In this document: in pieces, positions 1-19,857 of the stretch
How positions within the stretch are numbered: position 1 is the stretch's first letter
Layout of the letters: the number at the start of each line of letters is the position of its first letter
Origin: Neophaeotheca triangularis
Lineage: Eukaryota
DNA length: 20,000 bases
Direction: 5' to 3'
Assembly (NCBI GenBank): GCA_054600435.1
Contig: BAAIJX010000032.1
Location: forward strand, 234,534 to 254,533
Made by a program: the position numbers and the translations under genes
Notes under the pieces: model-generated
What the model was told of the DNA's origin: nothing
Seen by the model: only the letters and a program-made list of their open reading frames with translations
Databases searched by the model: none

Positions 1-3000
1 ACCGCGGGCACCACGGGCACAGGCACCTTTGGTGGTGGTGCGTCCACTGGGTTCGGTCAAAGCGCGACCAATACCACCTCAACAGGTGGTGGCTTTGGTG
101 GATTCGGACAGGCCAACGCAGCTTCGACCCCTGGCAACAACAACAGCGGAACAGGCGGCACACCCTTCAGCGCGTTTGTTGAGAAAGATGGCGCGACAAG
201 CCAAAATTCTCACTACCAGTCTATCACCTTCCAGCAGCCCTACCAGAACAAGAGCTTCGAGGAGCTGAGAGTCGAGGACTACATGCAGGGGCGTAAGAAC
301 GGCAATACAAACGGCCAGGCTGGATCTTTCGGCACAAGCACCGGATTTGGAGGGTTTGGAGCAGGCAACACCGCAACAGGCACTTCCAGCACCACCGGTG
401 GCGGACTGTTTGGAAGTAATGCTTCTACTGCCAACAACAACACCACCACTGGCACTGGGTTTGGAGGGTTTGGAGGATCTCAGCAAAACAACACCAGCTC
501 GTTCGGTGGATTTGGTGCAAACAAACCTGCCACTGGCGGTTTTGGCCAACCCGCGAGCTCTGCTACAACCACCGGTGGCTTCGGACAGACTGCTAGTAGC
601 GGTGGCGGGCTTTTCGGCGGCAACAACAACAACAGCAACACAGCTGGAGGCTTCGGGGCGGGGACAACCACTGGAACTACCGGTGGTGGCCTCTTTGGGA
701 GCAACAACCAGCAGCAGAACAAGCCTGCGTTTGGAGGGTTTGGCAGCACGCCCAGCAATACCACCACAGGGTTCGGCCAGACCGGCAACAACAATGCCGG
801 TGGAGGTCTATTCGGCAGTGGCGCAAACACGACCAACAGCACAAGTACAGGCTTCGGTGGCTTCGGTGGCGCCAACGCCAATCAGCAACAACAGAACTCG
901 AACCCCTTCGGCGCACCCAGCACCAACACAGGTTTTGGAGCCTCTCAGAACAAGCCTGCAACTGGTGGGGGTCTTTTCGGCGGCGCTTCGAACAACACTG
1001 GTGGAGCGTTCGGACAAAACCAGCAACAACAGCAAGCTTCAACGCCTTTTGGAGGCGGCGCAAACTCGAACACGGGAGGATCGTCGCTATTTGGGCAGTC
1101 TCAGAACAAGCCTGCTGGTGGTGGACTTTTCGGGAGCGCTACAGGTCAAACCAATACCGGCGGCGGCTCCCTCTTCGGTGGGCTGAACCAAAATCAAAAT
1201 CAAAACACCAACACCAACAGCACCTTTGGTGGCGGTGCTGCTGGAAGCGGCTCGCTCTTTGGCGCGAAGCCAGCTGCTGGGAACACAGGAGGTCTGTTCG
1301 GCAACTCCGGCAGCGCCAACACGGGCGGTGGCCTCTTCGGGCAGAGTCAGAACCAGAACCAGCAAAACAACAACTCCAATTCTCTCTTCGGAGGCATGGG
1401 AAGCAATCAACAGGGCCAGCAAGGCAATGGCACGTCCCTGTTTGGACAGAGCAACAACAATGCACAGCAGCAACAGCAACAGTCGCAAGCTCAGCCTTCA
1501 GGCCAACTGCACACGTCGTTGACCGCTGCGCCTTACGGGAACGAGCAATTGTTCTCGTCGCTTGCCTCACCATCGCCGCCCATTGGTCCATTGGCTACGC
1601 CACTGTCCGGCGCGAGACCAACACCAAGGAAGGGACCAAGCCTTTTGGCTTCTACGCGGCTCAACAGTCCGGCGCACACCCCACGGGGATCCAGCGGCTC
1701 GTTGGGACGTAGCGCAGGATACGGCTTCAGCTATTCTAACTACGGCACGCCAAGCTCTGTTTACTCCAACAGCCTCACTCCGGGCGCTAGCAGCTTGCTC
1801 CGGCAAAGTGGAAGCTTTGGAAGGTCATCAGGTCTTCTGTCCAAGAGCTACAGCACCAGCAACCTCCGAGGCGACGTCAGTCAGAGCGAGGGCAACAGTT
1901 TGCTTCGCTCAAGCGCCTTCTCTCCGTCCGGGACTGGGTCTGGCAGCTACGGTAGAAACAGTGTTCGCAAACTGCATATTGACCGGTCCTTGCGCTCTGA
2001 TCTGTTCGGCCCTCCGCCTGGCCGTGAAGAAGGCGAGCGCCGCCAGTCAAAGTCCGTTAGCTTCGACAATGCAGTGCTTAGCGGCAGCGCAAATGGCAGT
2101 GCTACGCCCAACAACAATAGCAGCATAAGCACTGCGCTTGTCCGGACTGAGGAATCCGAGGACAGGACGCCACAAGGCTCAAAGTCGCAGTCCGCCAACC
2201 AGGCATCTCAAGGCGAACAGACGAATGTCAATGGTGCTTCTGGTCTCTCTACAGTCCCGGAGGATGGAGAGCCTGCTCGTTCTTCTCCTGCTACTGCACC
2301 TCGTACGCATGCTAGCAAGCCCCGGGAATCCCCCCCTGGTGACTACTACATGGACCCACCGCTTCGTCAACTACAGAACATGTCCCGCGCACAGCTCCAA
2401 AAAGTCAACCGTTTTAGGGTCGGACGCGAAAATGCCGGATTCATCGACTTCGGCCCATGTGACCTGACGTCTGTCGATCTCGACAAGGTCCTGGGCGACA
2501 TTGTGCAAATCGAGGCTCGCAATGCAACGGTGTATCCCGACAAGAAGTCGACCCCGCCCATGGGCCAGGGATTGAATGTTCCTTCGCTCATCACATTAGA
2601 GCAGACGTGGCCAAAGAAGGGAAGAAAAGGCCGGAATGGAGAGGTTATTCAAACGCCAGAGGAACGTCTTATCGACAACCTCAAGAAGATCGATGGGACC
2701 GCATTCATGGACTGGAACCGCGACACTGGGGTCTGGCGCTTTAGGGTTCAGCACTTCACAACCTACGGCCTCGACGACGACGATGACGAGGATGAATTCG
2801 GCGAGAGTAGAATTGAGACTGAGCAAAGTTCCAGCGTTCTCACCGACGCCCCACCAACCACTGATCAGCAAGACGATTACACACTCGCCAGTGTGGATTC
2901 GAGCAACGTCGACGAGGACACCTTTCAGTTCAAACTCGAGAAGCGATCTCAACGCAGCCAGCAAGGCTACATGCCTCCTGGTGGCTTCACGGGCGGCGAC

Positions 3001-5726
3001 GTCTCCTACGAATTTGACGACAAAATCATGGAAGAAGCCCCGACACCAGCCGGATTGAACGATGAGTCCATGGCAGATTCTATTCTGTCCGCTGGAGGCC
3101 CCGTGCAAGCTCCCAGCCCCGGAACCTTACAGAAGTTCCACTCCAGCCAGATGGAGCAAGAGCCTGTTGGCGAACAGATTGAGGAGCCCGAGGAAGCAGT
3201 GATGTCTGGTGCTTACAGCGCGCCGCTCGAGCCGAAGTTTCCGCGTTCAATCTTGAAGCCCACCACTGCTGCTTTTGTCTCGCCGCAGAAGGCTGCTACG
3301 GAAACGTGGGAAGAGAAGCTGCAGCAGACGCTCAGCCCTCGTAAGCGAGACCGGCGTGCACTTAAGGATATGCAGCAACCTATGCGCCACCCGGCGGAAG
3401 ACGATGAGGTCAATCTGATGGCCTTCGGCCAAAGCACTTTCGGACAGAGCGCTCTAGGCCAGAGCTACTTGGCGCAAAAGAGCGCAAAAAAGGCACCAGC
3501 TGAGGCCAACACTGGACCGGCGTTCGAGACAACCATCGACATTATGAATTCTCTGTGGGGACAACGAACCGGCAAAAGCAACGCGAGACAGGATGGATTT
3601 GAGGTATGAACAATGATTCCAACCCTGTTCAAACCCAAGCCCCGTTGGACTTCGTCAGAGGAGTCCCCCAGGCATCGATCGGCCGGTTGAGCAAGAGGAT
3701 GATCATCATCGTAGTGTAAAAGTACATAGCTGAGTATTGCGTTTTACAGATTCCTCAACCGAAGAAGCAGCGCTTCACCGACGCCGATGGCTCTACTCCA
3801 ATGGATGCTGAGTTCCGAGACTCCTTCAAGTCGAAGTTCATGGCAGACGGCACTTTGGTCTACGCCGGCAACGCTCCGCCGGGCGATGGTATGGAGACCG
3901 CAAAGGCTCCTGTTGTTGGTGAGAGACGTGACGTACGCTTTGCTCGGTAAGTCTTGTATTTCCACGCACACTTCCCTTGAAGAAGCTAACCAGATCCCAG
4001 GTTTTCTATCCCTCAAGATGGTGATTCCAATATGACCCTCATTGCCCAACAAGACTGCACTGTCTTGGAGAAAGCTCACACTGGAGAAATCCCACACGCT
4101 TTGAATACTACCGAGTTCACTTTCAAAGACTTTCAGCAATCTGTTCCAGATGGTCTAGCGCTCTGGGCGGAGCGAGACATTTGGCAACTTTGCAGCATTT
4201 TGTTTGATGCTCCTGAAGTCGCGTTTCCGGGATGGGCGAACGATCTACCGCATGACTTGGTTCATCTTTACGAAAGCAAAGCGCGCATGGACACCTTCAA
4301 TTCGTTCTGGGCTAAGCTGTGCCCCAACGAGTCCCAGCTACGGAGTGCGAGAACAGAAGAGGAGAAGGCGTTGTTACATCTCGCAATCGGCGACATTGTC
4401 AAAGCGTGCGAGGTCCTAGTTGCCGCCAAAGACTTCAAACTGGCGACCATTGTTGCTCAGCTTCCAGGTGACCCTCAGAGTCAAGAATACATGAGCAAAC
4501 AGATTGAGGCATGGAAGCAGCGTGGAGACTGGAGTGAGATGTCCGACTCCATGAGAGCGCTCTACAGCATCACAGCTGGTTCCTTCTGCACGGTGGCCGG
4601 GACTGGAGGGAGTACGGAGAATCGTTCTTCGGAGTTTTGTATTGCGGAAAGGTTCGGTCTGAGCTGGAAACAGAGCTTGGCTTTGAGGGTACACTATGGC
4701 GGTTTTGCAAGCCTCGAGAAGGCGATAGACGCCTACGTTCAGGATCTGGAGACACAGAAGGAAAAGCTCAAGCCTACTGCGGGAGACGGAGAAGGCTCGA
4801 CAGCTCGCGAAGATCCGCTCTTCGGCCTACTTCGACTTGCTACCAGGGGCACAGACGCGGACTGCTTAACTGTGCTCGAACCAACACTGGCTCCGGGGTC
4901 TTCGACAAGCACTAGGCTCCCGTGGCAGCTAGCCAACTTGCTTATAGCAGCCGACCTAATTAGCCTGCCTGCTGACAAGATGGACTGCTTGACGAATACC
5001 TACGCCGCGGAGCTTGAGCTTCAAACATCACTCGTCAACGCCGCCTGGGTCCTTCTCCACTTGCACGAGAGCATCGACCGTCAACACGCTATCAAGGGAT
5101 TACTGGAGCGCAAAGCCGGCTCTATCCCAGACACCGGCGATACTGCGCAGCCTGGAACAGTCGAGCAGCTCGTCGAGCAAGGAAAGATTCCTTCTGACAT
5201 GATCTGGAAAGCCAAAGCGCTTCATGCCCAAGCTGTCCTGAAGGATCCGGCTCTACAAGCCTCGTACCTACTTCAAGCCAACGATGCCGACGCCGCTCAC
5301 GACATCCTCGTAGGTCGTGTTGGGCCGTCTGTCGTGGTTGAGCGAAATTACGATGCCCTTCAACTGCTCCTACAAGACTTCGAACACGCGCCCTCGATCG
5401 ACAGAGCCAAATGGGATGCTGGCGGTCAGGTGTTTGCCGACTTTGCCCGCCTTATGACGATGAATGGGGGCCAGAAAGAGGCGGAGAGGGGAGGTTTGGT
5501 CAGAAGGCTGCAGAGGGGTCTAGCGGGCATGGAACAGATGCAGGAACGGGCTCCCAAAGGTGCCATTGGTCTTGAGGCCCGGGTTGCACTGGTCGAGATG
5601 CACACGAGCGTGAAAAAGATCGCGAAGGAGTTGGGAGAGAAGACGTCCGCTCCGGCGCAGACTAAAGCCAGGCTGTCCAGTGCGCAAGACCTACTTGCAA
5701 AGTACACCATGGCAATGGCTGCGTGA
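1..5726 (+). CDS. NUP98: Nup98-Nup96 nucleoporin precursor (Nup145/Nup189/SonB orthologue), 5'-partial; exons <1-3603, 3750-3946, 4001-5726 (1841 aa within the window)
   Basis: Frame 1 is open from base 1 with FG/GLFG repeats (1 to ~1450), so the ORF-track ATG at 283 is internal. GLEBS motif ...YQSITFQQPYQNKSFEELRVEDY at ~148-297. Nup98 autoproteolytic domain ~2332-2760 ending WRFRVQHF/TTYGL. Removing two canonical introns joins GFE|IPQPKKQR...VRFAR|FSIPQ in frame to the 4032-5726 helical Nup96-type ORF. Confidence 0.95.
3604..3749 (+). other. Spliceosomal intron of Nup98-96 (146 nt, phase 0)
   Basis: GAG|GTATGA donor, GCTGAG branch-like site ~3729-3734, TTTTACAG acceptor ending 3749; restores the reading frame. 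Confidence 0.85.
3947..4000 (+). other. Spliceosomal intron of Nup98-96 (54 nt, phase 2)
   Basis: GTAAGT donor, GCTAAC branch 3985-3990, CCCAG acceptor ending 4000; places the downstream exon in frame with ORF 4032-5726. Confidence 0.92.
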
Positions 5727-6551
5727 GCCCAGTAAAAGTAGCCAAGAGAAGGTCAAGAGATGAAGCGAATGATAAGACGGAGAAGGCGTGGAGCCAGTCC
5801 GGTCATGTTTCGTTAGTATAGCTAGTGTATTATTGTCCCAATTGTAAGTGCCATTTTCTTCTTATAGATAGTGGAAGAACGGGTCATCTTTCGTGCATCG
5901 CGGCCATAAAGATCAGCACCATCACACCCTAGACAAGTATGGGCATCATGTGAACCTATGCAGATCTACTATTCGTGTGCATCTAAAGTAATCGATGTTC
6001 CCCCTGAGCACGTGAACTACAAATATACAGATTGAAGCCCTAGCGACAAGCGAGCCCGAGGCTGCGAATAACAGGCTCCAGCTGCCAAAGCACCTACACT
6101 TCACTGGCTTGAGCTCACGACCGTTCGGGAACAAACAGAATTGGAATTACATCCGTGGGCATATTAATTACCATGTCCACAAGTTAAGCTGTCGCCTGTG
6201 TGTGAAGTGCGAAGGGGGCTCGCCACGATGGACCTCCCCGCGACCTTCTTGCTGAGGAGCCTGATACTTTCAGATCGGCCGCCGACGGCTCCATCAAAGA
6301 CTACAAGTGGTATTGTTAATCCCAGGTGTGTCTTTGATCTCAATCGTCCGTCTAATCGGCTGATCGGGAATAGGGTTTTCGACGAACGTAAACATCTACG
6401 CCAGGGACTCCAAACTCCAAACGACGACACGAGAGGCACCTGAAACACAACTGTCCACTCCTGCGGGCCGGCGCACCCTGACCTCAATTGACGGCCGGTG
6501 GATCCAAGGCGTCTCCATTAATCGTAGAGGGCTGCGCGCCGCCCGCCAGCA

Positions 6552-9398
6552 ATGCGGTTGGATCGCACTTCCTCTTCTGACCAGCAAGTGACAGTTACGG
6601 TTGATGATGAAAGGCATCGGGGCTCGCAGCTACCACGGAAGGCTGAGAGGCTTCTAGGAACGAGGGCATTGTATCAGAATAGCAGCGCGGTCAAGAGCAG
6701 GGCAGAAGATCAGCGTCCACATGGGGCATGTTTAGATGCAGAGGAGCGGAGGGGATATGCTGAGCGCGGCAACAGCCACGACGACAGTTCTGCTATATCA
6801 CGAGACTCTATGCCTACACATTGGAAGACCTGGAGGCACCGGGACAAACAACAAGTTTCGAGCGGTCATGGGGCGGTCGCGTCTCATCACGACTACTCGA
6901 AAAACTCCAACGCAAGCCTACAAAGTCAGATGCGGCGCGAACCCTCAAATTCCACCATGGGCTCACAGTACTACGATCCTGCTCGACTTCCGTCCACCGT
7001 CTCCCAGCAGACATCTGCTTCTGCGATTCGAGACAGGCGCTGGATCCCTCCGGAGCATTTGCACGCCAGTGCCAGCGACCCTGCCCTGGTGTCATCTGAT
7101 AGGCCCCTTAAGTCGGCCATGAAGCGGCCTACACAGGATAGGCGCGTCAGCGACAAAGGTCTCAGGCGACCCAGAAAGTTTGACATATCTTCCTTCTTTT
7201 CAAGATCGAAGCCTTCGCAGGATCAGCGCTCAAGTGCGGCGGGATCATCTTCGATTCCTCCCACCTATGGACCGGCAGAACCACTGGAGGGCCTCTCAGG
7301 ACGAGAGAACCTGCATCTGAAAGCGCATGAGACGCCTGCTTCTAGACGCGCGACGAGAGCAAAGATATTCGACAATGACCTTGATACCGTGGAGAGAACA
7401 CGAAGGCGTCCTCCCAAAGGAATATCCAATTGGTTCGATGGTCTTGACGATATCAGTAGCGAAGACGAATGCGAAGACGATGGCGTAGCAGTTGCCGCTA
7501 CGACTTCATACCCAGTTCCGAGGGTTCCTGCTCAGGAGGATCGGTCCCGGGCGCCCCAGCCTGTGAAGCCCAGAGGGGCGATGCCAGACCCTGTACAGGA
7601 TAACCTACTCGCTATACGCGACGCCAAGATTCGGCTCAAACGTGCCATGCAGCCGCCACAACGTAGGGGCAGCGAAGATTCGAACGCCGTTGACTCTGCC
7701 GTTTCTGCTGAAGAAAGGAAGAGGCTTGAATCTAGGCTTGCTGGAGCTCGCCTTGCCAAAGAAAGTATACTCTCGCTCTCTTCTTCATCCGAAGATGAGC
7801 GCCCAAATCTTCCCGCCATCCGAGATAGTCTCGCCTCTGATTCTATTCATCGGATACAAACCCCTTCGATTAGGAACGCTAGAAGCGTTGGCGTACTTCG
7901 ACCGGCTGCGCCCGCCAGGCAATTGCAAAGCAGTCGGAGCTTTCAGCGCGAGAGTGCGTATCCACGCGATACCGTATCGACCTTCCAAACGTCGGGATCC
8001 ATTCCGATCAGGCTCAACAGTGACATTCCGATTCCTCCTTTGCCGATGGCCGACGCGAGCAACGGGTCTGACTCTGCCGTTGTGGCGTTGCACCAGCTAG
8101 AGGGTAAGCGTGAGTCTCAGCGAGCCAGCAGCCGCCTCTGGTCCACGAGCGAGAATGCCTCTGCACAAGATGACGGTGAGAGTTTTGTCAGCGAAACAAC
8201 GACCAGCTACGGTTCAGAACCGGCACACATGTTCGCGGTTACCGAAGAGGAGATGGCTCTTTTGGAGATGATGCGTAAGAAGCGGGCAGCAATGGCTCAG
8301 AATAGCTTCTCCGAAGGTCATCGCACGCTGATGCCGGAAGATAAACGGTACCCTACGTCAAGAAGAGGGTCCTCGCATCACAGGCAGAGCACAATGCTAG
8401 GCCAGGAAAGCGACAATCTGGGCGCCCGGCAAAACCACAGTCCTTCTGGCTCATCATCACCCAGCTTTCCACAAGTCTCTTGCGAATTAGAAGACATTGC
8501 ATTCCGAGAAGGAGATTGTGAGAAAGATACTCAGGAATTGGAAGGAAGCCGGGAAGCCGTGAATCATGCGAGCGGGCAGTTGTTGCTGCCCCAAGCTTAC
8601 GATCCAAGAGCGAAGCAGGTGACAACCACGTTGCATCCTGTTGGCAAGACTGGAGGTTCTCCACAGCATGAGTTCGGAAGTGCTGGAGGATTCTTTACCG
8701 ACGACCACGACGTACCACTCGGCTCAACGCGGACGCCCACGACGGATGCTTTTCCAGCCCCGCCCACAGGCAGGAAGCCAAGCTCGCAAAGGCGCTCGCG
8801 CAAGTCTCCAATGTCTCCCCAACTTATAGTCGAAGAGGAGCCAATACCCGAGCAAGCAGAAGTTCATTATCATTACTCCCGAGCACCAGGGAAGGCCACC
8901 ATGGCAAGAGCCACCACGGGCGAGGATATTTCCACTGACAAGAGCGTCTCCACGTGTTCATCCCCTGCGACCGGCTCCCACCCAACAGGCCACCATTGGA
9001 GTCCCTACCACGCAAGCTCAGACTCGGAGTTGACCAAGCTAGACTCGGCCCAGCCTGGGAGCAAGTTTTCGTTCTCGTCGGCCGGTACCTCTAGCGTTTG
9101 GCCGCGGACCTCTTCTTCATCAGCGCACAGCCCATCCGACGAAGCGCGCAGCACTATCAATCACCAGCAAGGGCCCGTCCGTGAACGGCGCTCGCTCGTC
9201 AGTAGCCAAAGACAGGCTGGAAAGCCCCGCATGAGCATCTACAAAGGAGAAGACTGGCAGGTTCCTCAGGGCGTTCATCGCGTGGGCAGTGTGCGCAGCC
9301 AAAATAGCCACATCAGCGCCGGCGAGGATGTCTTGGCGGCTTGGGCGGCCCTCGGAGGGGGAAGTGAGGCTTTTACCCCCGGAAGAGGAGCAAGGTGA
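6552..9398 (+). CDS. Hypothetical Ser/Arg/Pro-rich, largely disordered protein (948 aa); start codon uncertain
   Basis: 2.85-kb uninterrupted ORF. Short structured-looking islands (KAERLLG, RPPKGISNWFDGLDD, MFAVTEEEMALLEMMRKKRAAM, SAGEDVLAAWAALGG) in low-complexity sequence; no recognisable domain. Confidence 0.8.
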   Translation: MRLDRTSSSDQQVTVTVDDERHRGSQLPRKAERLLGTRALYQNSSAVKSRAEDQRPHGACLDAEERRGYAERGNSHDDSSAISRDSMPTHWKTWRHRDKQQVSSGHGAVASHHDYSKNSNASLQSQMRREPSNSTMGSQYYDPARLPSTVSQQTSASAIRDRRWIPPEHLHASASDPALVSSDRPLKSAMKRPTQDRRVSDKGLRRPRKFDISSFFSRSKPSQDQRSSAAGSSSIPPTYGPAEPLEGLSGRENLHLKAHETPASRRATRAKIFDNDLDTVERTRRRPPKGISNWFDGLDDISSEDECEDDGVAVAATTSYPVPRVPAQEDRSRAPQPVKPRGAMPDPVQDNLLAIRDAKIRLKRAMQPPQRRGSEDSNAVDSAVSAEERKRLESRLAGARLAKESILSLSSSSEDERPNLPAIRDSLASDSIHRIQTPSIRNARSVGVLRPAAPARQLQSSRSFQRESAYPRDTVSTFQTSGSIPIRLNSDIPIPPLPMADASNGSDSAVVALHQLEGKRESQRASSRLWSTSENASAQDDGESFVSETTTSYGSEPAHMFAVTEEEMALLEMMRKKRAAMAQNSFSEGHRTLMPEDKRYPTSRRGSSHHRQSTMLGQESDNLGARQNHSPSGSSSPSFPQVSCELEDIAFREGDCEKDTQELEGSREAVNHASGQLLLPQAYDPRAKQVTTTLHPVGKTGGSPQHEFGSAGGFFTDDHDVPLGSTRTPTTDAFPAPPTGRKPSSQRRSRKSPMSPQLIVEEEPIPEQAEVHYHYSRAPGKATMARATTGEDISTDKSVSTCSSPATGSHPTGHHWSPYHASSDSELTKLDSAQPGSKFSFSSAGTSSVWPRTSSSSAHSPSDEARSTINHQQGPVRERRSLVSSQRQAGKPRMSIYKGEDWQVPQGVHRVGSVRSQNSHISAGEDVLAAWAALGGGSEAFTPGRGAR

Positions 9399-9867
9399 CG
9401 TGTTGATGGCGGTGGTCTCGTCTTGTTCTACTAGCTAGCATTCACAGCTCTCTTTTCCGTTTTACTTCGTAGGTCAAATTGCTGAGATCGCGGACATAGA
9501 GATAGATAATAATAATTATAGTAGTGCGCGAACTGCATATCATACGTGAGTAAGTACCTTTTGACTTCTCTCGGCGCCCCGATGCCAAGCTTGCTGGGGG
9601 GGCTTGCTCCGAGTTACTGCGCGAAGGAGTCACGATGGACGTTTCGCTTAGCCACCGATGCTCTACAGCAACAGGTAAATGAACTGTGGACGAAGCTCTG
9701 AGTGATGAGTTATCAGTGACTCGTCCGTCTTTTTCCCCAAAATAATAAGACAGAGTCTACGATTCAATGGTCGACAGTATTGTAAGACAGACAACCGCAT
9801 CTCGCGCCGTTCTCTCATCATCATTCACACCTCTTCCCGATCGACGGCGTCGCTACATACTGTAAAC

Positions 9868-11214
9868 ATGGTCATTGGGCGTCTCCATGGCAGCATCATA
9901 CTTGATGAACCAAACCATAAGGTCTATCAAGGCCCGGGCGCAACCGTGACTGGGAACATTGCCCTACGGTGGCTGTCAAACCACACTAGCGGCAACGACG
10001 AACTGTTTGGCCCTCTCAAGGCAACTGTACGTCTCGAAGGTCGGGCAAAGAGCAAAGTATGGAAACAAAGCGGTCAAAGCAGCCACATATATCGCGGTCG
10101 ACAAGCTCTGTTCGCCAGGACTCAGATGGCTTACGACGACAGTGTTCGGTTGGGAGACCACGAGCAGATTCTTGTTCCTTTCAGCATTGCATTCCCTTCC
10201 GGCAACGAGGCACAACCTTCAACGAACACCTGGACCCACGATTCTAGATTTGACTCTACCGGTGGAGCGCCTCTTCCACCATCGGTGAACGTGGTCTATT
10301 TTGGATTCTCTCACCATTTTGAATGCTTTGTGGCCTACCAGATCAACGTGTCTGTGAGCACGCCGGGCATCGAAGTCGCCATAGATGGTCTCCATGGAGA
10401 GGGGGGTCCACACCTTCAATACGAACCTCTTCCTCCGTTGAGAGACACTTCGATCGAGCATCATCGCTTAAAATGCTCTGCGAAAGTCCAAAACGAATTC
10501 CTGTTGCCAGAAGACCTCCGGCCCCACGGTTTCAAAGAGAGGGCGAAAGCGGTCTTTCAAAGCGACTACTATCCGACTTTCCAGTACGAAATATCTTTGT
10601 CCGCACCAAAAGCTATCTATCTGGGTGAGCGTATTCGATTCAGGTGCAAGATCAAACCGGACCTTCAGAACTCAACAGCACCAACTATACCGGACGTCAC
10701 GTTGTACGGACTCCAAGCTCAGCTACGTGCCAACACCCTCTGTCGATCGGAGCAGGGATGGATATCATGCTACGAGTCTCACGGGAGTGAAGATGTTCTC
10801 CAGCTTGAGAGCCGCAAAGACCCGGTTCCGTTCAATAAGGCTGACAATTGGGTCAAAGATCTCGAAACTCAGGTAGTAGAGGGAAACTTTTGCTCCTCGT
10901 TCAGCACATTCAACATCGCCCGGTCGTATTCACTGAAGCTCCACCTATGCATCGGGTGCGCTGCAAAGAGTACCAACCTGGAGCACCAAGTGCAGGTCAT
11001 CCTTCATCCTCCGAGGTGGCAGGGTGGCACCGCCAGCAGCGAGGCGATCGGTCACGCTGGACCCTCGGTGAATCAGGCAGTGCCGATAGTAGAGGACCTG
11101 GGAGATGCTGGGTTGACGGTGCCAGTGCCGGAGTACGAGGAGCCTCCAAGCTACGATCAGATTGAAGGGAATGCAGGGCCGGTGGGTGATGTTCAGGGAG
11201 AGGGCAAGTGCTAG
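9868..11214 (+). CDS. Alpha-arrestin-like protein (arrestin-type beta-sandwich with C-terminal PPxY), probable Rsp5/HulA ubiquitin-ligase adaptor
   Basis: 448-aa ORF with AAACATGG start context. Fungal arrestin-N-like pattern (VTGNIAL...LEGRAKSKV...IYRGRQALF...PFSIAFP...PLPPS), second sandwich ending SFSTFNIARSYSLKL, tail VPEY...PPSY. Confidence 0.75.
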   Translation: MVIGRLHGSIILDEPNHKVYQGPGATVTGNIALRWLSNHTSGNDELFGPLKATVRLEGRAKSKVWKQSGQSSHIYRGRQALFARTQMAYDDSVRLGDHEQILVPFSIAFPSGNEAQPSTNTWTHDSRFDSTGGAPLPPSVNVVYFGFSHHFECFVAYQINVSVSTPGIEVAIDGLHGEGGPHLQYEPLPPLRDTSIEHHRLKCSAKVQNEFLLPEDLRPHGFKERAKAVFQSDYYPTFQYEISLSAPKAIYLGERIRFRCKIKPDLQNSTAPTIPDVTLYGLQAQLRANTLCRSEQGWISCYESHGSEDVLQLESRKDPVPFNKADNWVKDLETQVVEGNFCSSFSTFNIARSYSLKLHLCIGCAAKSTNLEHQVQVILHPPRWQGGTASSEAIGHAGPSVNQAVPIVEDLGDAGLTVPVPEYEEPPSYDQIEGNAGPVGDVQGEGKC

Positions 11215-11874
11215 ATGCTGAGACGCGATATCCGATGCGTTTTGCGATACCCCATTGTTTAGTTATTGCCCGTAATATCTGTGTAGTTCGTCCAGACACT
11301 ATGTACATGACTTTGGCTCGGAACATCACACTACAGGCTAAGATAGGCCTGCGGGAGGCTCTGAGGTTGGAAAACCTGAGCGGCATCGGCGTAGCAGGGT
11401 GTCGATAAATGTTCAGCCGCGGTGGAACGCTGGGAGCTCTGCCACAGTACTGTTGTATATAGTAGGACTAGGACTTTCGCTACTTTGCTGCTGAACTGGT
11501 GCTCCCGGTCTGATGGCCGCCGCCCTTTTGAACTCCAACAATTGTGTCTGAGATACTGTATATACCAAACCTTCTGTAGTAAGCGAGTAGTCCAACAGGA
11601 TATCGCGCACTCGGTTTGAAGCGATATATTATTAACAAAATCCACGTAACGACTCATCAATCCTGCAGTGCAGTCTGCAGAGGCTTGGCTTCGGTCACCG
11701 ACGAGTCCCTGGAGGCACTACCGCATCACAGCTGAGGTGTCTCCGCTACGACAACAACAAATACCTCACCTCACCTCACTACTACTTCTTCTACTACTCC
11801 CGTATCTGGCACTACTACCATCTCCATTGCCATTGCCAACACTTTCCACTCCGCGCCATGGCACTGCTGGTCAC

Positions 11875-12193
11875 GTACGTCTCAACACCGCCATCCTGAT
11901 CCACCCCCGGTCCCACATCTAGCAGGCCGGCCGTCAAGCTCTCCACGCTGTCGCCGCTGCAAACCCGCCCCCTCCTCCGCCATCTCTCTTCACACCGCAC
12001 TTCGCAAACCTCACGCGACCACTTGGCGCAACAACACTGACCACGTGCGATCAGCTGCCATTGACTGTCATTACTCGCCGCCGCATCTGCTGCTCGCGCT
12101 ATCTGCTCGTCTAATCCGTCAACGCAATCCCCTGCTCACTCATCCTCACTTGCCGCCTTACTGCACCCTGGGCGGCGCATGACGTCTCTGTAG
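11875..12193 (+). other. Candidate 5'-UTR intron of the SAPS gene
   Basis: GTACGT donor 11875-11880, pyrimidine-rich body, CTGTAG acceptor ending 12193, 90 nt upstream of ATG 12284; branch site weak. Confidence 0.4.
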
Positions 12194-12283
12194 GCTGAAT
12201 CCGTTGTAGCCATCTTCAGCCTGGAACTGCTCGCTAGTTTCTACCAACCTACTCCATAGCTGCGAGCTGAGACGCAATCCAAC

Positions 12284-15200
12284 ATGTTTTGGCGATTCGG
12301 CGGCTACGCCAACATATCTACGCTCGACAGTATTCTGGACAAGCCCGATGTCACTGTCGAAGAGCTACTGGACGAGAGCGACCTGATTCAAGAGCTCAAG
12401 CAGCAGAACAGCAAGCTTATAGAGTTCCTTCGAGAAGAGACTGTGCTTAAGAAGTTGCTCGATTACGTTGTTGCGGACGCTCCTCCGGAAGAGTCAGTGG
12501 ACAAGGCAAAGGCTGAGGGTAGTCATGAAGAGGAAGAAAAGGAAAAGGAGCGGGCCTCAGGCATAAGCTTCTTCGGCAAAGGGAAGGGGCGTGACAGGTC
12601 AAAATCAGCGACGAGCAAGCATGACGACGACGGCGAAACGGAGCAGGAGAAGCAGGAGGCGCAGCGCAAGAAGTACGCATATGTCGCCTGCGAAGTGCTC
12701 TCATCCGAAGTGTGGTCCATTACCGAGGCCATTCTGGATCAGCAAGATGCTTTGCGGGAGTTCTGGAACTACATGCACAGGCCTGCGCCCCTGGATCCAC
12801 TGAGAGCCGGCTACTTCACCAAAGTCAACGAGGCACTGCTCGACAAGAAGACTGAAGAAATGCTCGCATTCTTCAAGTCTCTCGATGGCATCGTTCCGGC
12901 TATGCTGCAGCATGTGGATTGCCCGATGGTCATGGATCTACTACTGAAGATCATTTCCCTGGAGAAGCACGAGGGTGCCACGGGTATCGTCGACTGGCTG
13001 CAGGCACAGAACCTCATGCCTCTATTACTCGGATATCTCGGGGCAGAACACAACTCTGCAACCCAGACATCAGCTGGCGACTTCCTAAAAGCTATCATCA
13101 CCATCTCGGCAAATGCCACCACACAAGACCAATCGGTCATCGGACCAAACGAGCTTACTCGACAACTAGTGTCAGAGCCCTGCATCAAAACACTTATCAA
13201 CGACATGCTGCGCGGAGGCAACCCGTTGACTGTCGGTGTCGGGATCATCATCGAGGTCATCAGAAAGAATAATTCGGATTACGATCCCGAAAGCCTAGTC
13301 GGTCCAGAGCCTAAAACTTCAGACCCAATCTACCTTGGTACTCTGCTGCGCGAATTTGCGAGCCATGTGCCAGCTTTCATGCATCTCATCCGATCTCCAA
13401 GCGCGAAGAAACCCGAGCTCAAGGCAGCATTTGGTCGCAAGATAGAGCCTTTGGGCTTCGATCGATTCAAAACGTGCGAACTGATGGCAGAGCTGCTTCA
13501 CTGCAGTAACATGGGCCTGCTGAATGAGCGTGGTGCGGAAGAGGAGGCTCGAAAGCGCGACGCCGAACGCGAGAGACTCAAGGCAGACGGGATACTAGCC
13601 ACACCGAAAGCGCCAGGGACCCCGAGTCACGAAAACTCGCATGAAGAGTTTGGTAGCTCGGTGGATAGTCACGGTTTCCACCATGCCGAGAAGCCGAGTG
13701 ATGAAGAGTACGAGGGCAACTCCAGAGACGGCAAGAAGCTAGAAGTGCAGAACACGAGCGATGAGGATGGCTTCGAAAAGGTCACGGCGCCTTCTGACGA
13801 TCTGCCTGACGAGGTAACATTCGATGACTTGGACGAGAAGGTCGAGAACAAGAACGTGGTGTCTCAGAGCACTACTGCTGTGGACATACCGAAGCCCCTT
13901 TCGCCGAACAAGGGAGACTCCACGACCAAATCGGCGACACACTTGGCCCCATCAACAACACAAACAGCAGCAGACTCGCCAACTTCCGCCGGCGTCACCG
14001 ACCGTGTCAACAGCCTCGACATGGACGATGATACTGTGATGACTGAACTTGGGGAAGAGCCAGTCGAAAAGGGTAAGCAAACCTCGTCGCCTCTAACCCG
14101 AGAATTACCGATGGGCCCAGAACAGCCACTGAGCTTCCCCACAGATGAAGACGATCAGCCCACAGAGCTTGAGCGCGAGCTGTCCCGTCATGCAGAAGAC
14201 ACACCTGCACCGCTTTTTGCCGCGAAAAAAGAGCCTGCCGATCACTCCAATAGCTCCAACTCCTCCACGGGGCTCAGTGAGGATCCCAGTGAGGACTTTT
14301 CCAACACTGATCAGAGCGTTGCGACCATACAAGGCGAAGAAAGATTGGCGTATGAGACCGATGCCGATGGCAATCCTGTTGTTGGCGATCTTCTCAAGCT
14401 GCAATTCGTCGAGCATCAGGTCGTTCCGACGATACTTGTAAGACCATTATGACCCGTTTTGCAGATTCGGATTCGTCCATGACCGGGCATCGTTGCTAAC
14501 TTCATGTAGGATTTCTTCTTCAGGTTTCCTTGGAACAACTTCCTACATAACGTGGTTTACGACGTTGTCCAACAGGTCTTCAACGGCACACTCGATCGGG
14601 GCTATAACCGGGCCCTTGCCTTTGACCTCTACAAGCCCGTGGCCGGCAAGAACGGCGAGTCTGCCGAATCGCTAGGCTTGGGATCCTCCAAGGATATCAC
14701 CGACCGTATACTCGATGGCCAAAAGGCCTCGGACCTGGCTCAAGCCGACCGTGGTATGCGATTGGGTTACATGGGTCACTTGACGCTTATCGCCGAAGAG
14801 GTCTGCAAGTTTGGCAACAGGCATCCCCCGGAAACGCTTGATCAAATCGTTCTGGACCGTGTCAACCGAGACGAATGGGTCCAATACGTCGAAGGCACCC
14901 TTACTGAGACCCGCGAGAAGGACAACGCTGTCTTGGGAGGCGTCAGACCCGAAAACGCCATGGGCGTGCGGCAGCAAGTCGGCATTGGCAGCCTGCAAAG
15001 TGGCTTCACGGCCAACACGTCAAGCGCCCTCTCCGACGCCGGCATCGCACCGCAGGATAGCCTCGCAATGTCTGAAGGCACCGTTGGGCAATCGTCCTTT
15101 GAGATCAATTCTGGCAGCATGCTGAGTGGATTCGGCGACGGCGATGACGACGAAGAGATGGAAGATGAGCATGAACAAAAGGGTGGCCAACGCAGAGGCT

Positions 15201-16321
15201 CCGAAGGCGCGCTTTCGGAGGATGAACAGGTTGGTGAACTTTCGTTCGATGATGTTGATATGAACTATTAACGGCACCCGCACCTTGCACGCCCTTTTGC
15301 GCTTTTTACTGCCCTCGGCACTCACGTACCTGCATAGTGGACCTTCATCAGATGAGGAGCAGTTTCGATGCATGGGACGGCTTTTGTACGATTACCGGAT
15401 GAGGGAAATCCCTATAGCATACATTTCTCTTCTTGTATAGTAGTACTCTTTCGAGGCTGCACTTGTTCTCGAGATCTTGGGCCCCTTGTTCAATCTTTTT
15501 TCCTTTTCCCCCCCATTCTTCTCCTACTCGACTCGTATTGCTGAGCGTCCCTACCGACTCACCAGCAGCAGCTTTTTCGCATCACGAAGATAGAGGTACG
15601 CCGCAACGAACGCTTCGAACACGTCAACTGACTAATATGCTCGCCTCTGCAGGACTCGTCACCCACGGCAGCCAAAGGCTCTATCCCGCCACCCCTCAAC
15701 ATCCCTCCATCCCGAGCACGCATGCAACTGGCAGCTCGACTGGCTGCCAAGAAGAAGGAAGCAGAAACTTTGGACAACGATCCAGATCTCGCGGATAATG
15801 CCGCTGTAACCACTGCAAGCCTTTTGCCTCAGGAACCCTCGGAAGGCTCTGTCGATCTCGCCCCCGCAGCTGAGCAGGATATACAAGAGTCCGGTCTGCA
15901 AATTACAGGGCTTAGAGTGCAACCCAAGTCGGATGGCATGGGCAAAGGGCCGAATCGGTTCAGTGGCCTCTTCATGAGTGATAACTCGTCGTCTTCGGGC
16001 GAGGACGAGTATGGCAGCGATGAACGCGAGCAAGGGGATGGCACGGCTGGAGCGAAGAAGGGTGCTGCTGCTGGTAGGTCGTCCCAAAGTCAAGAAGAAC
16101 AGGACGACAACAAGCAGCGTCGTCCAAGCACTACCGAAGCCAAGACGCGTCGGCCGCTCGACGAAGACGACGACGACGATGATGATGATGAGGAGTTTGG
16201 CTCTGTACTGGAGAGCAGGCACCGTTTGGGCGCGGGTCCGTTCGCAGATCCCATCGAGATGAGCGATGATAGCAGTGACGACGAGCCCGTTGAGATCAAG
16301 CCTACTCGTCGAGCTGGCTAG
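12284..16321 (+). CDS. SIT4 phosphatase-associated protein (SAPS / PP6 regulatory subunit; SAP185/SAP190/Ekc1 family). Exons 12284-14437 and 14510-15229, probable micro-exon ~15572-15595, and 15653-16321 (~1188 aa); alternative short form ends at 15271 (971 aa)
   Basis: Family signatures MFWRFGGY, YAYVACEVLSS, IIIEVIRKNNSDYD, EPLGFDRFKTCELMAELLHCSNM, DFFFRFPWNNFLHNVVYD (formed across intron 14438-14509) and RLGYMGHLTLIAEEV. The distal exon PPPLNIPPSRARMQLAARLA with an acidic tail is in frame with an acceptor at 15652. Confidence 0.92.
14438..14509 (+). other. Spliceosomal intron of the SAPS gene (72 nt, phase 0)
   Basis: GTAAGA donor, GCTAAC branch 14495-14500, TAG acceptor ending 14509; joins VVPTIL|DFFFRFPW. 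Confidence 0.95.
15596..15652 (+). other. Probable intron (57 nt) before the last SAPS exon
   Basis: GAG|GTACGC donor, ACTAAT branch 15631-15636, TGCAG acceptor ending 15652. Confidence 0.65.
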
Positions 16322-16613
16322 GAAGCGATGCTGGAGCATACGGAGACATGGAGTATGGGGGACTTTGTACTTTTAGCATTATACCAAAGTTTGATCATTC
16401 AGTATCATCTAGGCTCTACGTTTCCTTTGCTGTATTGCCGGCGGTGTCGTAGGGTTACTGCCATGGAATCGATGCTCTAGAAACTACGAACGACCACCCC
16501 ATCTCCACATGGCATAAAGGGAGACCTTGTTGGCATTGCCGAATCCGGTAACAGCTCTAAACGCGGTGAAGGTGGTAGCTTGGGTCTTGAAGGTCCCGTA
16601 GGACCGTTTCAAC

Positions 16614-16723
16614 ATCTCTCTACTCTACTACTTTCTCCTCTATCCTCTCCTTCGAAATCTCTCTACTCTACTACTTTCTCCTCTATCCTCTCCTTCGAAA
16701 TCTCTCTCTACTACTACTACTAC
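16614..16723. repeat. Perfect 43-bp tandem duplication (16614-16656, 16657-16699) running into a partial copy and a short (CTA)n tract
   Basis: Unit ATCTCTCTACTCTACTACTTTCTCCTCTATCCTCTCCTTCGAA read twice, identical. Confidence 0.95.
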
Positions 16724-16752
16724 TTCAGTACAAGCGGTTGAGTTTACCCTTG

Positions 16753-16829
16753 GTAAGAATTACAGGAGTGAAGCATTGGCTTATCTCTCTCCTTGAGTCC
16801 TTCGGTTCTCCTAACATACTAAGCTTCAG
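16753..16829 (+). other. Probable 5'-UTR intron (77 nt) of the orphan gene at 17007
   Basis: GTAAGA donor, CTAAC branch 16811-16815, TTCAG acceptor ending 16829; same donor hexamer and nearly the same length as the coding intron 17700-17775. Confidence 0.6.
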
Positions 16830-16833
16830 TTGA

Positions 16834-17007
16834 GCAGCTACAACGCGCTCCCCTCTCTCCCAGCATCCTTTCAGTTTTAGTAGCTAGACTGCGGACATCC
16901 AGTCACAAGCGACACTACTAGCAGCTACAACGCGCTCCCCTCTCTCTCAGCATCCTTCCAGTTTTAGTAGCTAGACTGCGGACATCCAGTCACAAGCGAC
17001 ACTACTA
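16834..17007. repeat. 87-bp tandem duplication (16834-16920, 16921-17007) with 2 C/T differences; the second copy ends on the A of the ATG
   Basis: GCAGCTACAACGCGCTCCCC...CCAGTCACAAGCGACACTACTA read twice. Confidence 0.95.
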
Positions 17008-19491
17008 TGGAGGGGAACGGGGACGAGCAGCAAAGAAGCGGAAATGTGAAGCGGAAAAGCCGTCCATTCCTTCCAGACTCATCAGATGAGGAACCTGAGC
17101 TGCCTAGTAAGAAGTTGAAGGCTTCGCAGCCACGTGGACCGAGCAAGAGTACAAAGACAAAACACAAGCCAGGGATTCAAGACGAACAAGACGAACAAGA
17201 CGAACAAGACGAACAAGACGAAGAAGACGAGAAATTCCTGTCCGAGCTGTTCCAAGGGCTCGAGAGATTCAGTCCACCAAATGTTTCAGTCACAGCAGAC
17301 AGGCTAAGCGATGCTGGGGACAAAGACTCCGACGATGAAGACACTCTCCCACCTACCGTGAAGCAGGCTTCAAACGCTCGTTCCGGCCGAAAGGACCAAA
17401 AGAACAAGAACATGGGCAAAAAAAAGCTGCCAAAATCTACTAAGGCTGCTCCCAAAAACCCTGGCATTGGTAGCGAGGCTAAAGACACAATCACAACAGC
17501 CCAGTCACAGTGGACCAAGCCAGCGAACGACGCGTATAGTAAATCAGAGATGAGGCTTGTTCTCAGAGCGCTCCAGGAGGGTGTACTCGCTGAAGTCCAG
17601 GGTGTAAAAGGCGCAGGCTGGAAATATTGGACTGAAACGATCGATGCTACGTTCAAGACACTTCCTACGGAAAGAAAATCGAGAGCAGCAAAGTATCAGG
17701 TAAGACCGAGCACCGCTTATAGCTATTCGTTACAAGAATACTTGTGTCGTATCTAACGAACCGGTGATACAATAGGGTGGGCTTGAAAAGCAGAATCTCA
17801 ACCCGATACGAGCCAAGTACCGCAAGCAGTGGTCTAGGTTCAGAATTGCGCTCAACGAACACCCTCTCTATGAGAGGCTTATGAGGAATCCTATGTCTAC
17901 TGTGACAAACTCTGGGAATTCAACCATCTCATACAAGGAGCTGGGTCAGGCGTGCCTTAATGTGGCTTCAGATGCGATCGAAACTCGGTTCAGCAAAGAC
18001 CTCGAAGAAAGCGAGAAATACAAGGCAGCTATCCGAGCGAACCCTAGCCACACTCCGAGCTTCTTCAGTCACGGTAGCAAGCCAAAAGTCGACGTCCGAA
18101 TGATCCAGAGGAATGGGAGTCGTATAGCCTCGTCAGTCGCGCAAGACCAAAAGGTTGAAAACGACGGTGATTCTGAAGACGACGACGACGCCGGACATAC
18201 CACGAATGCAGTCAAAAAGGATCCAGGAGCTAGTACGAAAGTGCAGCGTTCCGTCACAACAGACGCCGTCTCGGACGTCAATGCCTTCCTACTGCTTACG
18301 CAAGCTTTCGCTATGCTCACAAAGCTAAAAGCAAACCTTGCGGAAGAGGGAGAAGTCTTAGAAGCTGCAGGTAGGGATTTCGAGGGTGACGAAGACTTTC
18401 TCGAGGGACACCTTCTTGCGCATCTCGACGGTGAGCAAAAACCTACCGATCAAATCGAAGCGTTCATTTCAAGAATCGAAGAAGACGGCAGACTGGTGAA
18501 GAAGATGAATCCAGCAGAACTTGAAGCTTTTCATCAGATCATCGTCCCTGGTAAGAGGAGAGGTGATAGGGCTGGAGACAGGACCCAGGCTCCGGTCACA
18601 AGCGACGTCGAGACTACCAGGACCCAGGCTCCGGTCACAAGCGACGTCGAGACTACCAGGACCCAGGCTCCGGTCACAAGCGACGTCGAGGCTACTAGGA
18701 CCCAGGCTCCGGTCACAAGCGACGTCGAGGCTACCAGGACCCAGGCTCCGGTCACAAGCGACGTCGAGGCTACCATCCAGGAAATGCGAGATGCTCTGAA
18801 ATCAGCCCCCGTAGCGAGCAAAGGCGAGGGAGATGATCAGCATCAGGACGGCCAAGAAGCTACTCCCGTCACAGAAAACCAAGAGGGAGTTCAAGAGTTG
18901 CAGTCCGGTGATGACGTGCCTACTATGGATCTGGAGTCTGAGGCTGTAAAAGGAGGCGGCTTAGTCTCAAATGACCGCGACCTTGAGGATAAGAAGCCTC
19001 TCTACCAGGCAACTGTCGAGGGCGAAGTTGATGGCATGGACGTTGATGTAAAGGGAGAGGAAGAAGGAGCTGAGGAATTCGATCGAGATGTCCTTCTAGA
19101 CGTTGAGGGTGAGAATGACGGGCAGGTTATAGAAGGGCGAGGCAGTAGTCTCGTCCCTTCAGACTTGGAAGATGAATGTGACAAGCAGATGGTAGGAGAA
19201 CAGGAAACTAAGCCACTAGCATTCGAAGGAGGCAACGGTCCCGACCCTACAGACTTGGAGAGTAAGGGCGGCAGCCAGAGTGCGGAGAAAAGTGCATCCG
19301 TTGGAGAAGGCGATTCGGTCTATGCGGACGCGCAGGATGAGATCAACCAGGTCACCAAAGATAGAGGCTCCGTCACACTCGACTCGAACGACGACGACCT
19401 CACTCAGCCTACTCAAGACGAAACGACTATCGGCGCTAGCTCTTGGTACTCCAAAGCCATCAACTATACTAGCAGCTTCCTCGGGCGCTAA
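17007..19491 (+). CDS. Orphan acidic, probably nuclear protein (802 aa; exons 17007-17699, 17776-19491) with a putative Myb/SANT-like (trihelix/MADF-type) segment and repeat-rich tails
   Basis: Intron 17700-17775 (GTAAGA, CTAAC 17753-17757, AATAG) fuses ORFs 17007 and 17881 through an open 35-codon linker (GGLEKQ...LYERL). NLS-like KRKSR...SKKLK. The domain call rests on pattern only. Confidence 0.8.
17178..17231 (+). repeat. 9-bp coding repeat (CAAGACGAA)x5 plus a degenerate copy, encoding (QDE)5
   Basis: Read directly in the sequence. Confidence 0.95.
18580..18774 (+). repeat. 39-bp coding minisatellite, 5 copies, encoding RTQAPVTSDVE(T/A)T
   Basis: Unit AGGACCCAGGCTCCGGTCACAAGCGACGTCGAGRCTACY; copies differ at only two positions. 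Confidence 0.97.
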
Positions 19492-19760
19492 ACAACTACG
19501 AGTAGTTTGGTCACAGCCGACGGACCACCTCAACAATTCACGACAGCATCCCAACATGAAAGCGACCATCACCCCCAAACGATATTTGATATTACTACTC
19601 GACATTACAACCCTTCCCTTAGCACCAGCAATCTCGAGCCAGTATCTACCCTGCCCTGCCCTGCCCTTTTAGCTAGTCCAGTCACATATGATATGCAGAC
19701 ATGATAATGAAACGTTCAATGACCAAGAATTTACCCTTTTCATTTCAGCTACTAGATGAG

Positions 19761-19857
19761 CTACCGTCTACTATGTCGGAGAGTAAGACATATGCTAGCA
19801 ACACAGACCACAAATCCCCTCAATAGCAAAAACAAAAACATCAAACCCCCGCGGGGG

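Follow-up and report, generated by a model that had tools for sequence, protein, structure and literature searches.

A dispersed GTCACA-N3-GAC motif array along an orphan fungal gene, possibly a cis-element acting at the nucleotide level

Introduction

Transposable elements of the CACTA (En/Spm) and PIF/Harbinger groups carry subterminal arrays of motifs that are bound by transposase. At the level of RNA, clusters of the word U(U/C)AAAC across the open reading frames (ORFs) and untranslated regions of meiotic mRNAs in Schizosaccharomyces pombe recruit the YTH protein Mmi1, and the cluster is the functional unit, as described for this determinant of selective removal (DSR) in PMC3352096. Here we describe an array of the motif GTCACA-N3-GAC in a 20,000-nucleotide stretch of Neophaeotheca triangularis DNA (the window; assembly GCA_054600435.1, contig BAAIJX010000032.1, positions 234,534 to 254,533 of the forward strand). 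The array coincides with one orphan gene of two exons and 802 codons, which encodes an acidic product with patches resembling nuclear localisation signals (NLS). The evidence comes from one locus in one strain.

The motif had been pointed out in an earlier reading of the letters made without database searches (the sequence-only reading), which proposed that selection acts on the DNA and that the array marks an accessory or mobile element. We find that simple models, namely chance, tandem repeats, a peptide motif with free codons and transposon ends, do not explain the array. Our preferred reading, held tentatively, is that it consists of cis-elements that act at the nucleotide level and are probably read on the mRNA.

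A motif array along an orphan gene

The core of the motif has six and three fixed bases on either side of a 3-nt spacer. Exact GTCACANNNGAC occurs 13 times in the 20 kb, 12 times on the plus strand and once on the minus strand (17895-17906), and all 13 coordinates listed in the sequence-only reading were matched. Dinucleotide shuffles of the window give an expectation of 0.17 and a maximum of 2, and 13 copies were reached in none of 200. The array is real and lies far beyond chance. There is no exact match in 1-16,800, which agrees with the search by eye that had preceded ours, and so does the count of eight independent exact loci, as seven of the 13 copies lie inside two young tandem arrays. 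The region also holds three one-mismatch sense copies, those already noted at 18868 and 19681 and a third at 18964; elsewhere in the window there are four in 16.8 kb. The bare hexamer GTCACA is found 14 times on the plus strand within 16.8-19.7 kb, and the first 16.8 kb hold none on the plus strand and one on the minus strand.

Because the motif had been defined post hoc, an unbiased scan was run in which all hexamers were compared between the tandem-collapsed region and the rest of the window. GTCACA ranks first (9 versus 0.16 expected, Poisson P ~1e-13), and the next-ranked hexamers, which come from a 9-bp microsatellite, are seven orders of magnitude weaker. Exact copies are spaced 120-500 nt apart (about one every 300 nt) across the whole 2.8 kb. 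Orientation is sense in 12 of 13 exact copies and in nine of the ten aligned loci, and the preceding YYYN that had been described holds for nine of ten loci. In positions 1-16800, GTCACA and its complement were seen 0 and 1 times against 2.5-5.4 and 1.5-3.4 expected (Markov orders 1-4), a depletion outside the gene that is too weak and too post hoc to call avoidance.

The copies, the host gene and its tandem repeats are arranged as follows, where phase 0 is the frame of the ORF.

16753..16829, plus strand: candidate leader intron of 77 nt, predicted from a GTAAGA donor at 16753, CTAAC at 16811 and a CAG ending at 16829
16833..17006, plus strand: 87-bp tandem in the 5' leader, two copies, 97-98% identical, with one exact motif per copy
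16902-16913 and 16989-17000, plus strand: leader motif copies CCA GTC ACA AGC GAC, in phase with the ATG, with an in-phase TAG TAG between
17007..17699, plus strand: exon 1, 231 codons, with basic NLS-like patches and a (QDE)n run
17289..17300, plus strand: exact copy GTCACAGCAGAC, phase 0, read S-VTAD
17504..17515, plus strand: exact copy GTCACAGTGGAC, out of phase; the protein there is QSQWT
17700..17775, plus strand: coding intron of 76 nt (GTAAGA ... CTAAC ... CAATAG), after which exon 2 continues in frame
17776..19491, plus strand: exon 2, acidic and rich in repeats, with 571 codons followed by TAA; 17776-19488 gives 571 residues without a stop
17895..17906, minus strand: exact copy GTCACAGTAGAC, the sole antisense one, one spacer base different from the 17504 copy
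18253..18264, plus strand: exact copy GTCACAACAGAC, phase 0, read S-VTTD
18579..18775, plus strand: 39-bp coding minisatellite, 5.1 units of TRTQAPVTSDVE[T/A], with five exact copies
18595, 18634, 18673, 18712 and 18751, plus strand: exact copies GTCACAAGCGAC, the 12-mer identical to that of the 5' leader
18868..18879, plus strand: one-mismatch copy GTCACAGAAAAC, phase 0, read P-VTEN
18964..18975, plus strand: one-mismatch copy GTCTCAAATGAC, absent from the sequence-only reading, phase 0, read L-VSND
19351..19362, plus strand: VTxD in other codons (GTC ACC AAA GAT), the sole such case, 9 nt upstream of the 19372 copy
19372..19383, plus strand: exact copy GTCACACTCGAC, phase 0, read S-VTLD
19510..19521, plus strand: exact copy GTCACAGCCGAC, 19 nt past the TAA, in ORF phase, where it would read VTAD
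19681..19692, plus strand: trailer copy GTCACATATGAT with one mismatch, ~190 nt beyond the stop, in phase, where it would read P-VTYD

All copies fall downstream of the acceptor of the candidate leader intron (16829) and before the first A/T-rich stretch that follows the stop; the 19681 copy directly precedes this stretch. Judged from these splice and A/T-rich signals, the array appears to span the whole mRNA from leader to trailer, and both upstream copies would lie in the mature 5' leader if the candidate intron is spliced; its GTAAGA donor type is common to the coding intron. The 17504 copy keeps the CCA seen before the 5'-leader and 19681 copies, and the latter has TCCAGTCACA and an upstream TTTTAG..CTAG in common with the leader copy.

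The leader copies are untranslated now, because the leader has an in-phase TAG TAG and no ATG upstream of 17007. This TAG TAG stands at 16878-16883 and 16965-16970, once per 87-bp unit; an open in-phase stretch precedes it and the PVTSD-like copy follows. Sexual-stage adenosine-to-inosine editing in some filamentous ascomycetes converts UAG to UGG. Past the TAA, two of the three sense frames are open through the trailer, so that the open frame after the stop is not significant. A 60-nt intron at 19446-19505 that would skip the TAA was rejected, given its poor donor (GTACTC) and the two frames that are open there anyway.

Codon choice, phase and flanks

Synonymous-codon permutation is free of the ascertainment bias that attaches to loci picked on their DNA. 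When synonymous codons are permuted within the gene so that the protein stays the same, the four in-frame exact copies compare with a mean of 0.56 (P=2e-4), and a total of at least six exact copies was reached in none of 20,000 permutations. The out-of-phase (17504) and antisense (17895) exact copies, neither of which encodes VTxD, also exceed the synonymous shuffle (P=0.004). Further, two exact loci lie in the ~360 nt of leader plus trailer, where ~0.003 are expected at the rate taken from the window shuffles. Val-Thr is written GTC ACA in seven of nine cases in the gene and in-phase trailer as compared to none of 11 in the neighbouring genes, in which ACA is the rarest Thr codon (0.20). The old phenylalanine-glycine (FG) motif of the neighbouring Nup98-96 gene served as an internal control: its 39 FG use eight codon pairs, and all 12 of its TGxG are spelled differently.

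Outside the fixed bases, the loci have little in common. Flank identity across the ten loci is 0.265 versus 0.258 at random sites, a value reached by 24% of 2000 control sets; spacer identity is 0.244, and only positions -4 to -1 are raised (0.45). All four bases occur at the third position of the preceding Ser/Pro codon, whereas GTC and ACA keep their third bases at every locus and GAC changes its own in one of ten. In gapped alignments of the flanks, ten of 90 scores reach the control 95th percentile and two the 99th, which indicates no paralogy. Since the free sites in and beside the motif are saturated, the frozen synonymous sites cannot be put down to recent copying. The VTxD peptide by itself does not account for the array, and something therefore acts at the nucleotide level.

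The claim of DNA-level selection in the sequence-only reading is thus borne out as far as nucleotide-level non-randomness goes (P=2e-4 and P=0.004). Its main argument, drawn from the untranslated copies, is weaker than it seemed because the three non-coding loci all share the ORF phase: the leader and trailer copies at 16902, 16989, 19510 and 19681 are in phase 0 and would spell PVTSD, PVTSD, VTAD and PVTYD. The dyad symmetry of the outer GTC...GAC, to which the same reading drew attention, yields no predicted hairpin; that candidate was ruled out by the mean pairing probability of 0.06 for its 3-bp stem. Bases of the ACANNN part are predicted to pair less often than those at random transcript sites (0.72 versus 0.49 unpaired, P=0.002); because composition contributes, this accessibility is weak support for a nucleotide-level element.

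Tandem units in the gene measure 9, 39 and 87 bp, all multiples of three and 97-100% identical; the 87-bp array lies in the leader. The 9-bp coding microsatellite (CAAGACGAA, 5.9 units at 17178-17230) reads as QDE repeats. A decayed in-frame duplication of 90 bp at 19139-19259 keeps 31 nt at 81% (...SLVPSDLE... / ...PDPTDLE...), and this old pair (19139/19229) retains recognisable flanks, unlike the motif loci. The 17504 and 17895 copies form an inverted pair (GTCACAGTGGAC ... GTCTACTGTGAC) that is identical in 11 of 12 positions, which could be chance; the ~400 bp between them include the intron and encode the protein's one helix-rich, non-repetitive part.

A second strain and repeat-induced point mutation

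Logan contigs were compared with positions 14000-19840 of the window. In addition to the source run, these include a run labelled as the same organism and from the same study (X2). Upstream of 16450, X2 has one version with 17 differences in 2.45 kb. Across the gene (16696-19606) it has two half-depth versions, one 1.6-2.7% and the other 13-14% different, the latter with frameshifting indels; this pair beside a full-depth upstream contig suggests a mixed, heterokaryotic or diploid sample. The X2 contig departs from the window after 16450 and is back on it by 16668-16696; this structural change coincides with the left edge of the mutated block.

C>T (203) or G>A (146) changes make up 349 of the 398 X2 differences, of which 40 were individually listed. 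Among those listed in the gene, CpA is the site of all 11 C>T changes and TpG that of seven of nine G>A; the five C>T or G>A changes listed upstream of 16.4 kb all fall outside this pattern. The X2 block carries canonical repeat-induced point mutation (RIP); this implies that it was once duplicated or lay beside repeats and gives limited support to an accessory block. RIP-type CpA>TpA changes occur in both versions, lightly in one (~2%) and heavily in the other (13-14%). Seven of the 22 listed full-depth differences are premature stops, so that the gene is dead (a pseudogene) in X2. Two C>T changes, at 17502 and 17508, destroy the out-of-phase copy and make two TAG stops. Both versions have one 87-bp unit instead of two (joints skip 87); the 39-bp units are three and four fewer (joints skip 117 and 156), leaving one or two versus five, and a joint that skips 9 nt removes one unit of the microsatellite. 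With 40 of the 398 X2 differences listed, the comparison says nothing decisive on the motif itself.

Searches for relatives and known readers

No Pfam family was found in exon 1, and exon 2 gave only a sub-threshold repeat match. The suggestion that the array is bound by the protein it overlaps is not supported: neither exon has a Pfam domain. A word-index search with exon 2 gave no homologue, and HMMER against 1.84 billion representatives gave four matches (E 2e-5 to 7e-4), all repeat-on-repeat to unrelated proteins. Similarly, residues 150-231 of exon 1 had no homologue among longer proteins. Metagenome contigs searched by protein gave 242 pattern matches, none of which was confirmed, and a 21-nt word gave none; the ESM Atlas had no usable match. 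The AlphaFold2 model of exon 2 residues 1-260, computed without an alignment, is unusable (mean pLDDT, the predicted local distance difference test, 43).

Several described sequence elements were compared with the copies and dropped. The TGTCACA element, described as bound by a Trichoderma bZIP protein, was dropped because the copies here are not preceded by TG. Abf1 sites (RTCRYN5ACG) fit only three of the eight exact loci by eye, and the Ndt80 middle-sporulation element fits three loci in part. The RGAC context of N6-methyladenosine in yeast was compared with the copies by eye, and so was the CACAGTG heptamer of recombination signal sequences, which the 17504 copy resembles; neither was retained.

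Possible readings of the array

We tentatively favour an array of nucleotide-level cis-elements, probably read on the mRNA, a reading that we hold to be possible and somewhat short of an even chance. The element would be ~15 nt long (YCN-GTCACA-N3-GAC) and would recur at ~10 loci (14 to 16 copies) over the predicted mature transcript. The sense RNA could then act as a multivalent landing site for an RNA-binding protein that recognises the motif, and the bound protein would control the fate of the mRNA, that is, its stability, localisation or translation. Within the ORF, the element would read [S/P]-V-T-x-D, having settled in the only phase that fits well with an acidic low-complexity protein. 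RNA is preferred to DNA because of the 12:1 orientation, the match between the array and the predicted transcript, and the Mmi1/DSR precedent. Taken singly, the RNA version is still unlikely; it stands ahead of the version in which double-stranded DNA would be read as an intragenic cluster of binding sites, which we regard as distinctly unlikely. The RNA version can be put more sharply as a 'valency code', in which ~10 bipartite elements (YCN-GUCACA-N3-GAC) would have their synonymous sites frozen by an RNA-binding reader, so that the same bases carry a peptide and an RNA signal. In this full form it is speculative and rather doubtful.

A number of observations weigh against a nucleotide-level element. 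Nine of the ten sense loci are in phase and read [S/P]VTx[D/N], with Pro or Ser before the motif in eight, and all five sense two-mismatch copies are in phase as well. The peptide itself is enriched, VTxD at 5 versus 0.25 and [SP]VTx[DN] at 5 versus 0.05 (20,000 residue shuffles). An RNA element needs the assumption that this is the only tolerable phase, plus a 1-in-27 coincidence for the non-coding loci. The phase bias is less telling than it appears, because chance matches in this acidic protein favour phase 0 about fourfold over the other phases (0.56 versus 0.14), and this includes the two-mismatch copies, which are at chance level. No homologue turned up in any searched collection. Searches also gave no RNA family to which the element belongs, no predicted structure, no reader motif known from fungi and no tRNA. 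Further, both X2 versions have premature stops and the out-of-phase copy is mutated there, so the locus is dispensable in X2, and the copy numbers of the 39-bp and 87-bp tandems differ between strains.

The phase and peptide results are what would be expected if the array were a short linear peptide motif, [S/P]-V-T-x-D, repeated in a low-complexity and probably nuclear protein, its copies derived from one coding module by internal duplications. We consider this possible, if doubtful. The motif could be a phospho-dependent docking site set in an acidic context, its nucleotide identity inherited and the leader and trailer copies former coding sequence. The gene does grow by in-frame duplication, with units of 9, 39 and 87 bp and the decayed 90-bp pair, and tandem copy numbers vary between strains. 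Between the leader copy and the 39-bp unit, 14 of 15 bases agree (CCA/CCG GTC ACA AGC GAC), the difference being a synonymous one in the Pro codon; the in-phase TAG TAG and TAA could be RIP-type C>T versions of CAG and CAA, and such stops do arise in X2. However, codon identity is too high for a peptide with free codons (P=2e-4), as the freely spelled FG repeats of Nup98-96 illustrate. Unconstrained descent that left the flanks, the spacer and the adjacent synonymous site saturated should also have randomised GTC, ACA and GAC. In addition, the leader copies are untranslated now, and the out-of-phase and antisense copies (P=0.004) stay unexplained by a peptide.

Mutation without function could produce sharp identity islands of 12-15 nt in unrelated flanks, one of them inverted and one out of phase, if a short patch was repeatedly copied from a master into nearby breaks or stalled forks (template switching, templated repair, 'cryptic simplicity') in a gene prone to mutation and repeats. 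Between strains the locus is structurally unstable: indels of 1 to 9 nt occur, the tandems change in copy number and 16450-16668 is replaced. An insertion of 130 bp at 16458-16586 comes from another gene. Such a process predicts random phase and orientation, whereas nine of ten sense loci share one phase and 12 of 13 copies are sense. It also leaves unexplained why this word alone is amplified, no other hexamer approaching its excess except those of the microsatellite, and the copies are not recent pastes of one master because the spacer differs at almost every locus (0.244). We judge this origin improbable.

The transposon reading, in which a subterminal or internal array of a mobile or accessory element is bound by a protein that the element may itself encode, comes from the analogy with En/Spm and PIF/Harbinger drawn in the sequence-only reading, and is highly improbable. 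The RIP-mutated block in X2 (~16.7 kb to at least 19.6 kb) implies past duplication or adjoining repeats; the left border differs structurally between strains and holds a foreign gene fragment; the RIP index of the block is shifted in the window itself (TpA/ApT 0.96 versus 0.55-0.68 in the neighbours), and the window ends in a contig break. These are weak echoes of an accessory or mobile block, to which the single-copy depth of the gene in the source run and the core genes on its left are opposed. RIP leakage into single-copy genes is documented in PMC3105345, and because RIP can leak in this way from neighbouring repeats, duplication of the block is not required. No terminal inverted repeats were found: the nine inverted pairs in 16300-19840 (15-41 nt, 71-82%) are CT/GA-rich, and none brackets the array. 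Pfam gave no transposase, Myb/SANT or any other DNA-binding domain in either exon, and the copies run along the whole gene in one main orientation (12 of 13) and are not clustered near its ends.

The locus and its surroundings

The neighbours of the orphan gene are core genes, with the Nup98-96 gene (autopeptidase/FG and Nup96 domains) at 283-5723 and a SAPS (SIT4-associated) domain gene at 12284-15268. Depth over the orphan gene in the source run is 108-121 as compared to 130 for the neighbours, as would be expected of a single copy. The window appears eukaryotic and fungal in style, and the organism would be a RIP-competent, filamentous-type ascomycete. In the estuary metagenome run X3, two 151-nt contigs at depth 5-7 are identical to the gene (18903-19053 and 19431-19581), so that the organism or a very close relative was present in that sample. 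Low-complexity contigs of X3 that pile up at 17178-17230 at very high depth belong to other organisms.

Upstream of the candidate leader intron, 16614-16718 holds a CT-rich tandem of 43 bp (2.4 copies, 96%) followed by (CTA)5.7, promoter or leader sequence that resembles a CT box. Depth is twice as high in both strains over the ~130-bp segment at 16458-16586, whose loose ends run into other sequence. On the minus strand the segment holds an open protein piece, YGTFKTQATTFTAFRAVTGFGNANKVSLYAMWRWGG, and it seems to be part of a different gene that came by insertion to lie between the SAPS gene and the promoter of the orphan gene; Pfam had no match to the 38-residue reading at 16487-16600 on the minus strand. 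At the contig end, 19853-19949 is a run of ~97 G (93% pure), flanked by CCCCCGCG / CGCGGGGG and by loosely mirror-like T/G-rich sequence, then (TGGTGT)n. The G run probably has no biological meaning and reflects an artefact of sequencing or assembly (no-signal G calls). The source-run Logan contig ends ~35 nt beyond 19840.

Comparison with known systems

Like the arrays of CACTA and PIF/Harbinger elements, the present one has many copies of ~12 bp within a few kilobases that are absent from the neighbouring DNA. Unlike them, it lacks terminal inverted repeats and a transposase or Myb-like gene, its copies do not cluster at the two ends, their orientation is 12:1, depth in the source strain is that of a single copy, and core genes lie beside it. 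Fungal coding minisatellites (variable number tandem repeats) share with this gene the head-to-tail units, the unit lengths in multiples of three and a copy number that varies between two strains, but the tandem arrays cover only seven of the 13 copies, and the remaining loci are dispersed and share nothing except the motif. Under any reading the locus displays rapid turnover, with tandems that differ between two strains and a gene killed by RIP in one.

Short linear motifs of the FG type are similar in that a peptide of four to five residues recurs in frame within low-complexity protein, with unrelated sequence between. Codons are free in FG repeats, whereas the VTxD copies are identical and have exact non-coding, out-of-phase and antisense siblings. 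If the peptide reading holds, this would be an ordinary repeat-rich orphan gene, with codon identity as its one unexplained feature.

The likeness to the DSR/Mmi1 system lies in a short word that is repeated on the sense strand, inside and outside the ORF, irrespective of surrounding similarity (as set out in PMC3352096). Here the word would be GUCACA-N3-GAC, longer than the U(U/C)AAAC of the DSR, bipartite and nearly confined to one phase, and the host is not fission yeast. The likeness is therefore one of mechanism by analogy and not of membership, and the array is no member of any named family. Should the nucleotide reading be right, the locus would offer a high-valency natural substrate with which to search filamentous fungi for a new protein that binds RNA or DNA in a sequence-specific way, and a clean case of overlapping codes in which synonymous sites are frozen by a non-coding function. 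The valency code, if true, would represent a new reader-motif pair comparable to Mmi1-DSR or Whi3-UGCAU, with this locus as its target or decoy.

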